Assembly: GCA_951406725.2 (NCBI GenBank)
Contig: OX597821.1
Coordinates: forward strand, 11,966,001-12,030,000
From: Octopus vulgaris
Lineage: Eukaryota
Reading direction: 5' to 3'
Length of the DNA stretch: 64,000 nt
Shown here: positions 4,725-57,069 of the stretch, one piece after another
Numbering within the stretch: position 1 is the stretch's first letter
How the letters are laid out: every line of letters begins with the position of its first letter
The notes under the pieces: model-generated
The model's input: the letters and a program-made list of their open reading frames with translations, nothing else
What the model was told of the DNA's origin: nothing
Databases searched by the model: none
Position numbers and translations under genes: made by a program

Positions 4725-4931
4725 GGAGATGTACTCGCACAGCAAGTAATTTGATCTGAGATCGTATGCTGAAACGAAAACAATTGCAGCGTGGAAGGTG
4801 TTTGTAAGCCATTTAAGAAACACACAAAAGCCGTTCGATTCACTTCAACATTTAAGTTTAATTTGTCAAAATATTTTCGTCGCTAAAATCCGCGACCTGT
4901 TCACTGACAAAAATCCGTGATGCAGCACGGA
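4725..4931 (-). mobile_element. About 205-bp HHR-bearing dispersed repeat (pLTR-like), copy 1
   Basis: Nearly identical to 53039-53244 and to 56920-57069 (opposite strand); embedded in (TA)n. Confidence 0.85.
4862..4911 (-). ncRNA. Minimal hammerhead ribozyme motif, G3:C8 covariant core
   Basis: Minus strand reads TTTGTCA-GTGAACA-G-GTCGC-GGATTTTA-GCGAC-GAAA-ATAT-TT-TGACAAA: 7-bp stem I, 5-bp stem II, palindromic ATAT. Confidence 0.8.
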
Positions 4932-5716
4932 TATATATATATATATATATATATATATATAATATATATATATATATATATATAAATTGAAAATGTGTGT
5001 GTGTGTGTTTATATATGCATCGATGTATCAGATATGAATCGCTTAGGGATTTGCGTTCATAAGGCCAATGTTAGCCTGTCTTCAAAATCACAAATTATAT
5101 GGCATGAAACTTCTCAGTTGGTATTAAAGTCGCAAGCAGAGGATTATAAAAGAAATCTATAAAGATCACTTCTTTTACCAGATATATTTTATTGTATATT
5201 CATATAGTAATTCTGTTTTAGGTTTTACTTTTCTTTGTTACATCATAGGAATGTTAAGGATGAGTAAATGCTGCGTAAGGTCCGTTACCTTGTATTAAGA
5301 CTTGATATTTCCATTCTTACCAGTTGTATAATTGTACATAATTATTAGTACTGCTAATGATTTCATCGAACAAAAAAGAAAACACAATGTACGTTTCCCC
5401 CTTCTCTCTCTCTCTCCCTCTCTCTCTACCAGTCTATCTATTTATCCATCTGTCTGTCTGCCTATTTCTCTGTCTGTTTGTGTATCTGTCTACATATCTA
5501 TCTGTGCGCCTGTGCGTGCTTGAGTGTGTATGTTTGGTTGTACATATATGGGTTCATTACTGAAATATTATATTAATCTAGATTTACAATTTGGAACTCG
5601 ATCGAAATAAGTACGCAAAACTAGTACTATATTAAAATTTTAAGACAGTAGATACCGATCATACAGCACGGATAACAGGTTCAGTTATGTATGAATATCG
5701 TAGATTAAAAATGTAA

Positions 5717-6148
5717 GAGCTGGCAGAATTGTTAGTACGCTGGACGAAATGCTTAGCGGTATTTCGTCTGTCTTTACGTTCTGAGTTCAAATTCCACCGA
5801 GGTTGATTATGACTTTCTTCCATTTGGGGGCGATAAATTACGTACCAGTTACGTACTGGGGTCGATCTGATCGATTGGCCCCATTTCCCAAAATTTCGGG
5901 CCTTGTGCCTAGAATACAAAAGTATATTGCAGATGGGGAAAAGGCGGCGAGCTGGCAGAAACATTAGCACGCCGGACGAAATGCTTAGCGTTATTTCGAC
6001 TGTTCTGAGTTAAATTACGGCCGATGTCGACTTTGCCTCTCATCCATTCGAGGTCGATAAATTAACTACCAGATGCGTTCTGGGGTCGGTCGAATCGACT
6101 GGCCAGCTCCCCAAATGTTCGGGCTTTGTGGCTAGAGTAGAAAAGAAT
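5717..6148 (+). mobile_element. Two tandem copies of SINE family B
   Basis: gagctggcagaa..gttag.acgc.ggacgaaatgcttagcg...gttctgagtt.aaatt occurs at 5717 and 5950. Same family as 36756-37159. Confidence 0.85.
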
Positions 6149-9100
6149 ACCTGGTGATGATTGTTTTAAGCATGATACGTTTATATTATTTTTTAAACAT
6201 GATACTCGAGGAGCTATAGTCAGCGAAATGCACTTCAGAATATTATTCTTAATCATTCTATGCATTTGAAAGACATGCAAAATATTTCAGACAAACATCT
6301 GCCAACATTAATTTGAGAGACAGCACACACGGTCACATTTTTCTAGACACAAATGTATGGAATATAAATAGCATGTTAGTCACGGCTGAAATACTTTTGC
6401 ATGTACCATTGCTCGATCGGTTTATAACAAAAAATTCCGTGTATATATATATATATATATATATATATATATATATATATATATATATATATTTATATTT
6501 AGAGAGAGACAGAAAGAGAGAGAGAGAGAGAGAGACAGACAGACAGACAGACAGAGACAGAGACAGATATATATATATATATATATATATATATATATAT
6601 ATACAAGATCAAGACAAATGCAATGTACACGTTTCCTCGATGTAATTAGCTAATTATTTTAACACGCACGGGAGACATGTAATATGATTTGCTTTTATTA
6701 AGACATCATCAGTCAAACACAGTTCTCACATTCGTCCAAATAATATTCTGTTAATCTTTTAGTTACATGAACGCACAGACAAAATGTTTGCCACTTCCCA
6801 ATACTTTACGGCATTAGAAATGTTAACACTAACTTATCCACTATTTGTCAATGCATATGCAACGTTTCAGTAATTTGTTCTCAAATTAATTTTAGTGTAC
6901 AGCAAAGAAACAAAAGTTTCACAATGCTGGCATTAAATTTGATTTTATGAAGTTAGCCAACTGGAATTCTGAAATAATCACTATGAACTTCAAGCAGAAT
7001 GTGATAAGAAATAAACCAAACATGTTCAATATGGACTCTGAATAGTGAAGCATTGTAATGTGTAAGGATTCTTAACATAGCATATCAGTCGCTGTGGCAC
7101 TCTAGTAAATAATTCATCCAAATTTTGGTAAAGGGCCAGAAGTTTTAGAGGTAGGAGGAATGTTTCATATATCAACCTTAATGTGTCTGTTAACTTGTAT
7201 TAATTGGTTGTGTCTATCTATTAATCTATCAATACCTTGTATTAGTAGATTGGTACTTCATTTCATCGACCCCAAAATAATGACAAGTAAATTTAAATTT
7301 GGTGGCGTTTTAAACTCAGAATTTAAGGAGCCAGTACAAATGCCGCAAAAAAGTTTTATCCGACATGCTAACGATTCTTTCAGATCGTCACTCCTGGTTT
7401 CCGATTTAGGCACAAGGCCAGTAATGTTGAAGTGAGAGTGTTAGTCGATATAATTGATCATGTACTTGTGTGTAATCTATTTACTCGGAGCTGGAAAGAT
7501 TAACTTTGAAGTTCACATCCACGTTGTTTCAATTCAGAGGCTAAAGAACCTTAACGAAATATCGCAAGAATGTTTGGGGTGATTCTGCTTATCACATTGC
7601 CTTTCTCTCTATTTAATAACACTATGTAACAAATTTCTTCTCTATTTATTCAATCAACAAGTGTTACTTCCAATTTGCTTCTCTCTAAAAATCAATGGAA
7701 ATGATTACCATTCCCTACATACTTTGCTTTTCAGACTTGGACATCAACGTTTTAAGAATGACATATTTTCTATTACCTTTCAAACAGATTCTGCGCTGTG
7801 TTGCTGAAGTAGAAATATCGTTATAGCAAGTATTGTGGTCAATAAAACATATTTGCATGTCGATTGCTTGACCGTAACTACTTGAACATGTCCCATAGTG
7901 GGTAACAATATATGTATCTCTGATCATGAGCAGGAGTTGTTGGGGAGCATCATAGCCATGTGTTAAGAGGGAATATTTGGAGTTTGAATAAATATTACAA
8001 AAGTAAAGATGGAAGGAAATACCAGACATTTTTCATACTTTCCAGGTTTAAGTATAAAATAACTTGACAAAAAATATAGAGAGTGTGTCAGAAAAAGGTA
8101 GAGTCGGTGGAACTTGGAACGAGACAGTTGCACAACGTTCGAGTATGGGTGAAAAAGCTTTTTGTCCATTTCGACAGTCTGCACTGCAAACATACATTGC
8201 TCCGATCTCGGTTTTGTCTTTTTATCTTTTCAGGGTCACTTGCATCAGGAACAATCAACGGTGGGGTATTGTAGGAATTTCAGATTGTTGTATGTTGGAT
8301 ATTGAGGGCTCTACTTGCAGCTCTTTGCATTCTGAGATTTTGCATCGTAGAACAGGAATATATGGTAGTGACTTTTAGGGAATTCCATGTTTTCCACTCA
8401 TTCTTATCAGACTGTTGGTTTGCGAATGATTCCTTCCATATCTACCACTAATCTCGATGACCTGAAAATATAGAATGTCATGGGTACTACCCCACACTAC
8501 CTAACTTATAAGAAAATAAAAGGAGACAACATATAAAATTCCAACGTTTCGAAACGTAGTCCTTTATTAGAAGAATTAAATCAACAGAGGGACTATGAAA
8601 TTTGCATTATGCACCAGTGTAATTTCAAGTCCCAATGTTCAAAGCAAAACACAGAATAATACAAGAATTAATTCTATCACAGGCTTAAGGGTAGAGATTC
8701 GGGAAGAAATGGTACTGTTGATTAAATCAATACTTGACTGATACTGTATTTTATTAAACCGAAATGATGAAAGGTAAAGTTAACTTCGGCCTGATTGAAA
8801 ATCCTAGTGTAATGAACCGTCACTAAATATCTCAATGTATTTTATCTGGCGAGCTTTCGTGACGGCCACTAATGATATCGACGTATAAAATAAGTATTGA
8901 TTTCTGATAAAGGCATGGTGCCAGATATTAGTGGTGTTAGTTTTGATTGTGAAGGAAAAAGTACTGTTTATTATGATAATTGTAGTAGTAATGATCGTAT
9001 TAATGATGGTTCCGATCTCTCCCGCCACGCAAAGTTTGTACAATTGTACGTGAATAAACTTTAGTGCAGACTATATTTGATTAGTATTTGCTTAGTACTT

Positions 9101-55580: not shown

Positions 55581-56403
55581 ATACGTATATATACATATAA
55601 AATATAAAAAAGAGCAGATAGTTTAATATAATGCAGGTTCGATTTTTAACCGTTACCCTCGAATACTGTGTCATATTTTGTATGTACGTGTGTGTGTGTG
55701 TGTGTGTGCGTATGTATGTTTATGCGTGTGCGTGCGTGTGTGTGTATGTGCGTATGTATGTTTATGCGTATGTGCTTGTGTGTGTGCCTGCGTGTGTGTG
55801 TGGGTGTGTATGTGTGTAATAGGAAATATGTATGTAGAAGTGGATTAGCATATGTGAGTATATAATGTAAGATTATAAGTATATTTACGAGTGTGTCTAT
55901 ATGATTGTGTGTACTTGTGTATATGTATTTGGATATATGTGCACAGTTGCACCTAGACGTTGTATCCATTCACCGTTAGACGATGATGTGAGGAACAAAC
56001 ACACACCCACACATATATATATATATATATATGCGTGTGCGTCTATACAAACAAACATATCTGTGTGTATATATACAAACTTCAACAAAGTAACAGTCAA
56101 GTACACAACTTAGAAAGACACATACCAGTACACGGTTCACATGCACATACACATGTACACACACACACAGACGCGTCTGCCCTTTCTCCTAGATACTCAC
56201 ATACATACGTAGCACATATGTACATACATACATACATGCCCGCGTATGGGCATACACACGTACATACCCACGTACATGTACACACCCACATACATACGCA
56301 CATGCATACGCGCGCATATACATACATACGTACATGCGTACATACGTGCATACACACATACATACATACATACATACACACATACATACGCATATATATA
56401 TAT

Positions 56404-56544
56404 ATTTCTTTATTGCCCACAAGGGGCTAAACATAGAGGGGACAAACAAAGACAGACAAAGGGATAGAGTCAACTACATCGACCCCAGTGCGCAACTGGT
56501 ATTTTATTTATCGACCCCGAAAGGATGAAAGGCAAAGTCGACCT
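56404..56544 (-). mobile_element. SINE family B, 5'-truncated
   Basis: Matches 36760-36897; ends gtgggcAATAAAgaaat. Confidence 0.85.
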
Positions 56545-56919
56545 TATATATATATATAACCTGAACTAACTACATGTAAGGGAGAAAAGGGGGTAAAAAA
56601 AATAAAAAAGTAATAGTAAAACAAAAGTTTTGTGATATAGAGATAAGTGACTGATAATAGGCGGAGGGAGGTTGAAATTTGATATTATTGTGATGAGTGG
56701 TCAGTCTACATCTATCCATCATTACAGGTTTATAGCTTTAAGTTTAGAGTGTGTGTGTGCGTGCATATACATACATACATTCACACATACATACACACAG
56801 GCGTACATGTATAAATCTCTTACATACATGCATGCATGCATACATGCATGCGTGCATACATACATACATACATACACACATACATACGTACATGTATATA
56901 ACGAACAAACTATTACTTT

Positions 56920-57069
56920 CTCAGATGCAGCGCGGATTTTTGTCAGTGAACAGGTCGCGGATTTTAGCGACGAAAATATTTTTGACAAATTAAAATTAAA
57001 TGTTGAAGTGAATCGAACGGCTTTTGTGTGTTTCTTAAATCTCTTACAAACCCCTTCCACGCTGCAATT
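56920..57069 (+). mobile_element. HHR-bearing repeat, copy 3 (G3:C8 HHR at 56939-56989, one extra T at the cleavage site)
   Basis: TTTGTCA-GTGAACA-G-GTCGC-GGATTTTA-GCGAC-GAAA-ATAT-TTT-TGACAAA. Confidence 0.85.

Follow-up and report, generated by a model that had tools for sequence, protein, structure and literature searches.

A Penelope-like retroelement family of Octopus vulgaris carries a hammerhead motif with G3:C8 in place of the C3:G8 core pair

The window analysed here is a 64,000-nucleotide stretch of the Octopus vulgaris genome (GenBank assembly GCA_951406725.2, contig OX597821.1, positions 11,966,001 to 12,030,000 of the forward strand); coordinates count from its first letter. It contains three copies of a hammerhead ribozyme motif in which core positions 3 and 8 are G and C, and each copy is the 5'-truncated pseudo-long terminal repeat (pseudo-LTR) end of a Penelope-like element (PLE), a retroelement. 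Copy 1 (4720..4924, minus strand) is a short pseudo-LTR piece, 95.6% identical to a tandem element at locus L101 (L101:5223-5426); it starts about 20 nt upstream of the hammerhead, reaches as far as the 3' tail and has (TA)n tracts on both sides. Its hammerhead motif lies at 4862..4911 (minus), with G3 at 4904, C8 at 4899 and the predicted cut between 4869 and 4868. Its 3' end (4723..4812, minus) corresponds to codons 1-30 of the element's open reading frame (ORF; MAYKHLPRC...), the same start that opens the long ORF of L101. Copy 2 (53036..53244, minus) is a short pseudo-LTR piece of the same element, again with a tail; its motif spans 53176..53225 (minus; G3 at 53218, C8 at 53213, predicted cut between 53183 and 53182), and the ATG of the ORF is at 53126. 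Copy 3 (55943..57069, plus) is longer, though also 5'-truncated; it retains about 1 kb of 3' untranslated region (UTR) of the element at 81-85% identity and is split at about 56405-56547 by a different repeat; the tail is absent and the ORF ATG is mutated. The motif of copy 3 (56939..56989, plus; G3 at 56946, C8 at 56951) has one additional U before stem I, near the cut site. Copies 1 and 2 are identical across the 50-nt motif. An earlier note on this DNA had described all three motifs, and each was found where it had been placed, on the same strand and with the same parts, the extra U of copy 3 having gone unmentioned. The element protein had no tblastn match in the window, which is thus without element coding body beyond the first codons, and a repeat search of the window was dominated by (AT)n.

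The motif is composed of a 7-bp stem I, the core GUGAACA plus one more G, a stem II of 5 bp that carries an 8-nt loop, then GAAA, AUAU and UU. The type I core letters U4, G5, A6, A9, G12, A13, A14 and A15.1 are present at the junction of stems I and II; the canonical C3 and G8 of CUGANGA are replaced by G3 and C8. A15.1-U16.1 is also present, and the UUU cut triplet of copies 1 and 2 follows the hammerhead triplet rule NUH (PMC8495972). The AAUAUU of the helix III region is self-complementary and, with the pseudo-LTR location, this agrees with the earlier description of the motif as a minimal PLE hammerhead with a palindromic helix III. This extra G is known to be conserved in minimal PLE hammerheads (PMC4209133).

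A descriptor left free at positions 3 and 8 identified exactly three sites in the window, compared with 0.15 per shuffled window (20 shuffles). The pattern GTGANCANG..CGAAA likewise had three matches against 0.07 expected, a number reached in 0/100 shuffles. The monomer had a minimum free energy (MFE) of -14.7 kcal/mol (z -3.4) in copies 1 and 2, whose 50-mer MFE structure folds into stems I and II, and of -14.0 kcal/mol (z -2.7) in copy 3; folded in a 96-nt context, the z-score was only -0.5. No hammerhead appeared among the 150 Rfam matches listed of 258 in the window, or among the 5 matches at E<=10 for copy 2 alone. The warning that searches requiring CUGANGA would miss this motif therefore holds, and extends to Rfam.

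The 2.8-Gb genome contains at least 6,144 matches to the exact core pattern left free at positions 3 and 8 (control 0), far from the three-copy family of the earlier note. Among the first 100 matches listed, tallied by hand, the 3:8 states were G:C 94, G:G 2, G:U 2, U:C 1, C:C 1 and C:G 0. Copies found through the ORF, and hence without using the motif, gave a similar picture, with G3:C8 in 53/56 and G3:G8 in 3/56. Copies are 5'-truncated, share a common 3' end adjoining (TA)n and frequently have an inverted partner; their 3' ends form two groups about 55 nt apart. In longer copies, about 1.1 kb of 3' UTR is followed by an ORF with a YVDD reverse transcriptase (RT) motif (read in P0001-P0003), a CX3CxxC linker (CQSNCAVC in P0002 and P0003) and, at its C terminus, a GIY-YIG domain (Pfam match of 25.4 bits, cut-off 22.6). 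P0003 had no match to Pfam RVT_1; its homologs are annotated as RT. The longest open frame found has 1,025 aa, its 5' end being cut off by an inversion. L101 holds a tandem, its two motifs lying at 5242 and 9503; the ORF, which carries a stop and a frameshift in this copy, starts at 5334 inside the upstream pseudo-LTR, so that ORF codons 1-30 make up the tails of copies 1 and 2 in the window.

Partial tandems, inverted 5'-truncated partners and a tail at one end, all traits of endonuclease-bearing (EN+) PLEs, are present in this family. By its domains and motifs the element fits an EN+ PLE of the Neptune/Nematis type as defined in PMC8557442. It shares with that type a single ORF with RT, a CX2-5CxxC linker and a GIY-YIG domain at the C terminus, as well as (TA)n targets, partial tandems, an inverted 5'-truncated partner and a 3' tail. 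The Naiad and Hydra families listed for Octopus in PMC8557442 were ruled out, as their domain order and motifs differ.

Several loci show how copies have been rearranged. At L365:6911-8250, eight head-to-tail units of 166-192 nt each contain a G3:C8 motif, with C11.1 mutated in most. A retrozyme reading of this array was rejected: the units include target-site flank and C11.1 is mostly mutated, and the array is accordingly read as a local expansion at the DNA level. At L181, L212 and L227-L231, an inverted copy pair is carried passively within another repeat (93-98% identical across 1.2 kb), which inflates the copy counts. Some inverted insertions, at L104, L150, L168, L211 and L217, have halves that diverge at sites diagnostic of subfamilies, a possible sign of two RNA templates per insertion; many long young inverted pairs differ at 0-2 sites, some of them subfamily sites.

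A wider pattern gave 9,485 genome matches (control 12) and surfaced sister families whose extra G and stem II are the same and whose cores are canonical. The protein encoded by the upstream ORF of family B is 56% identical to that of the G3:C8 family, and L129 also shows ORF homology; the loci retrieved for families C and D showed no ORF. Positions 3 and 8 are paired in all 23 aligned representatives (GC 12, CG 9, UG 2), with both sides changed in 11; these representatives were hand-picked, and the counts stand for one or two events rather than 23. Across the set, pairing in stem II is 91%, and the extra nucleotide between 9 and 10.1 and the G10.1-C11.1 pair are invariant. A model built from 12 canonical-family copies alone recovers the three window copies (E 6e-5, 6e-5 and 1.6e-3). 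With this model, a decayed hammerhead of sister family C was also found in the window, at 10220..10273 (plus), with C3:G8, the same extra G and stem II, and mutated A9 and G12.

Judged from the alignment, G3:C8 versus the C3:G8 of the sister families is compensatory covariation, and the earlier note's view of the double change as compensatory is upheld. The swap probably arose once in the lineage. Because other PLE hammerheads have C3:G8, G3:C8 would be the derived state. Position 17 also differs among families: it is C in families B and C, mostly U in family D and L129, and U in the G3:C8 family. Of four loci of the old sister family D (L140, L179, L186, L239), three have U3·G8 as the 3:8 pair and one has C3:G8. 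A young subfamily of sister family B (L105-L123, L130) has A9 changed to C in every match; L125 and L132 keep A9.

The earlier note had taken fixation of the double change in a recently amplified family to imply selection. This argument goes too far, since copies inherit the letters of their master; the A9C sister subfamily was amplified too, so amplification needs no intact core and fixation alone is no proof of selection. The swap is moreover old, not recent, and the case for selection lies instead in persistence across old and young subfamilies. The old subfamily was collected by its downstream flank alone, giving 30 loci, of which 16 (one being the query) were kept by eye; the 14 dropped loci lacked the motif region, had it inverted or deleted, were of a younger type or were duplicates. 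The 3/8 states of the 16 copies are GC 8, AC 6, GU 2 and CG 0. Between the old and young subfamilies, column majorities differ at 0/11 core, 0/10 stem II and 35/79 loop and flank positions (core p=0.006), in a comparison limited to core, stem II and unstructured positions, with stem I, helix III and N17 left out (2-nt insertion). Both N7 and loop II changed between the subfamilies. In the helix III region the old subfamily has the palindrome AAUU; in the young subfamily it has lengthened to AAUAUU without ceasing to be palindromic. In the assembled contigs of 4/4 runs, which carry four organism labels, there were no variants at positions 3 and 8 at or above 5%, and both G3 and C8 are retained in a deep contig that shows 18 differences and 3 gaps. 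We propose that the genomic copies are dead, neutrally decaying insertions and that selection acted on the source elements.

The G3:G8 state was considered as an evolutionary intermediate and found no support: on a 155-row tree, which is poorly resolved (12/142 branches starred), the 31 G3:G8 rows need 27 changes, compared with 28.4 when shuffled (129/500 as low). A few G3:G8 source elements may nevertheless exist. The change of C8 to G seems about as frequent as the transition of C8 to U (2 and 2 in the first 100 listed matches) and recurs on several backgrounds.

We consider it probable that the G3:C8 motif still self-cleaves slowly, mainly as a dimer, after UUU. This prediction follows from an analogy: slow, dimer-dependent cutting is expected because minimal PLE hammerheads cut weakly as dimers and because a PLE hammerhead engineered with both C3G and G8C retains part of its activity, which either change alone abolishes (PMC11167929). 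More tentatively, it is possible that the family represents an active natural G3:C8 class, kept through successive active retroelement lineages and in several species and enabled by U17; such a class would act as a pairing-gated switch, with cutting confined to encounters between two element RNAs or two pseudo-LTRs.

Several observations weigh against slow cleavage as a dimer. The 5' ends of copies found by their flank lie 15-27 nt upstream of G3 in 21/46 cases and at the cut in 2/46; among 25 loci located through the ORF junction, the cut site is spanned in 14 and none starts at the cut. These counts exclude the sister families, where loci were chosen by query. By this distribution of copy ends, most reverse-transcribed templates would have been uncut. 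Six of the 16 old copies are A3:C8, and 232 genomic copies have an unpaired G3:G8. Within the young and middle subfamilies (67 distinct copies), 3/39 structured versus 13/74 unstructured columns vary (p=0.26, not significant), and the same contrast reaches p=0.026 (0/39 versus 9/74) only with a threshold picked afterwards. Three stem II pairs never vary, which a DNA-level constraint fits equally well. An amplified sister subfamily has A9 changed to C in 19/19 matched loci, taken from the 20 best matches to an A9C query. In the monomer MFE structure, a competing G3·U17 wobble is added onto stem I. The double-hammerhead dimer fold is possible, yet at -27.2 kcal/mol it is 2.2 kcal/mol less stable than two monomers (-29.4), and the cofold MFE is -31.3, tertiary contacts being uncounted in these values. 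In published work, minimal PLE hammerheads showed no cleavage as monomers and only poor cleavage as dimers (PMC4209133), and hammerhead mutants of a PLE left insertion in vitro unaffected (PMC11167929).

Many of these observations would suit a catalytically dead or nearly dead hammerhead descendant, in which the swap was passed on via founder elements and the sequence was kept as an internal promoter or as an RT-bound or dimerising fold. The pile-up of 5' ends upstream of the motif, the copies that span the cut site intact, the amplified A9C subfamily and the insertion competence of hammerhead mutants in vitro all favour it, as does the fact that the extra G and GTC are invariant in 23/23 representatives rather than covarying. 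A promoter of initiator (Inr) and downstream promoter element (DPE) type is located in the pseudo-LTR of D. virilis Penelope (PMC2377424). In the octopus family, an Inr-like TCAGAT lies about 23 nt upstream of G3 and a DPE-like GGTCR coincides with the extra G and stem II. Inr and DPE are recognised here by their familiar consensus strings. The pile-up fits a transcription start at TCAGAT, with an RT stop as the alternative; religated circles would likewise leave no copy end at the cut. A promoter, however, fails to explain a reciprocal two-base swap at a tertiary pair, nor why GAAA and U16.1 are kept in every family, nor why the palindrome stayed palindromic while growing, and 11/11 core letters are the same in old and young subfamilies. 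We regard a dead descendant as rather unlikely. An efficient monomer-cleaving hammerhead that relies on the 7-bp stem I and on loop II contacting an extended stem I is quite improbable: the monomer does fold well (z -3.4) and its stem I exceeds the 4-5 bp usual in minimal PLE hammerheads (PMC4209133), but 5.4 kcal/mol is lost when helix III is closed with a single base pair (-7.9 versus -13.3), loop II was free to change between subfamilies and most copied templates were uncut. The lack of an Rfam hammerhead match could also suggest a chance resemblance within a repeat of no hammerhead ancestry. That explanation has next to no probability, given the homologous position of the motif in sister PLE families with a canonical CUGANGA core and the same stem II, and given the shuffle controls; it is refuted by the 3:8 pairing in 23/23 representatives and by the recovery of the window copies with the canonical-family model.

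If the G3:C8 motif is a slow, dimer-dependent ribozyme, its action may be pictured as follows. Transcription would start about 15-27 nt upstream of G3. Two motifs, either at both ends of a read-through RNA or on two RNAs, would then pair their AAUAUU palindromes into helix III, and the paired motifs would cut after UUU, yielding unit-length or circular RNA or removing a capped leader. Cutting would be weak enough for most reverse-transcribed templates to remain uncut. U17 makes a poor cut site. The swap would be tolerated since N17 is U and not C and so does not lock G3 into a Watson-Crick pair. In a published comparison, given there as 'data not shown', G3-C8 was less active with C17 than with G17 (PMC3884650), and as the octopus family has U17, this residue may have allowed the swap.

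The motif resembles the minimal PLE hammerheads of Cervera and de la Peña (2014; PMC4209133) in its pseudo-LTR location, its extra nucleotide between 9 and 10.1, G10.1-C11.1, its palindromic helix III region, its mostly single truncated copies and its proposed action as a dimer, and differs from them in having G3:C8 instead of C3:G8, a UUU cut triplet and a 7-bp stem I. Natural core covariation has been described in that class as U3-A8, with about 1,300 matches in S. mansoni (PMC4209133). Natural U3:A8 hammerheads (Perreault et al., 2011; PMC3088659) share a compensatory 3:8 change with the octopus family, but they keep a pyrimidine at 3 and a purine at 8, both of which are inverted here. The core letters are those of the engineered C3G/G8C PAc PLE hammerhead (PMC11167929; reviewed in PMC8495972), which is a laboratory mutant, whereas G3:C8 here is the natural majority state of thousands of copies. 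Animal non-LTR retrozymes are likewise short hammerhead-bearing repeats (PMC7229834; bioRxiv 10.64898/2026.07.22.740005) and derive from PLE pseudo-LTRs according to the latter source; they are tandem units of 170-400 nt, whereas the window copies are dispersed truncations of an autonomous element, with one local 8-unit array seen. No natural G3:C8 hammerhead was found in the published literature searched, which included part of the PMC4209133 supplement; Lünse 2017 on PLE hammerhead variants, or its supplement, could hold one.

Other features of the window lie around these copies. A second, canonical minimal hammerhead (C3:G8, an extra A, 4-bp stem II) occurs at 41995-42031 (plus) in a different short repeat between (TA)n tracts, and a similar motif is found at L042:325. 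Copies 2 and 3 are arranged head-to-head, 3.7 kb apart, one tailed and the other tailless; this looks like an inverted pair and may or may not be one insertion. Abundant repeats beside copy 3 (57090-57300) and within it (56405-56547) resemble what we take to be short interspersed nuclear elements. A repeat after copy 2 (52800-52995, minus) begins with ACTAG and a short inverted repeat, and similar sequence flanks L229; it resembles Helitron/Helentron-type non-autonomous elements. A 182-aa open frame at 59440-59985 (minus) looks by eye like the C-terminal part of the reverse transcriptase of a long interspersed nuclear element; its Pfam match is weak and unrelated.

C3:G8 has been treated as near-invariant in hammerheads, U3:A8 being the sole natural exchange that we found reported in the literature searched. 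In O. vulgaris, a family that numbers thousands of copies has G3:C8 as its norm, beside sister families with C3:G8 in the same scaffold. Together they form a natural series, C3:G8 with C17 or U17, G3:C8 with U17 and an A9C lineage, that serves two questions: what the 3:8 pair requires, and whether PLE hammerheads must cut at all. The family also exposes a blind spot in Rfam and descriptor searches. If an active, maintained G3:C8 class is confirmed, it would be an abundant natural purine-3/pyrimidine-8 hammerhead in an animal, and surveys for CUGANGA would be missing whole families of genomic ribozymes.

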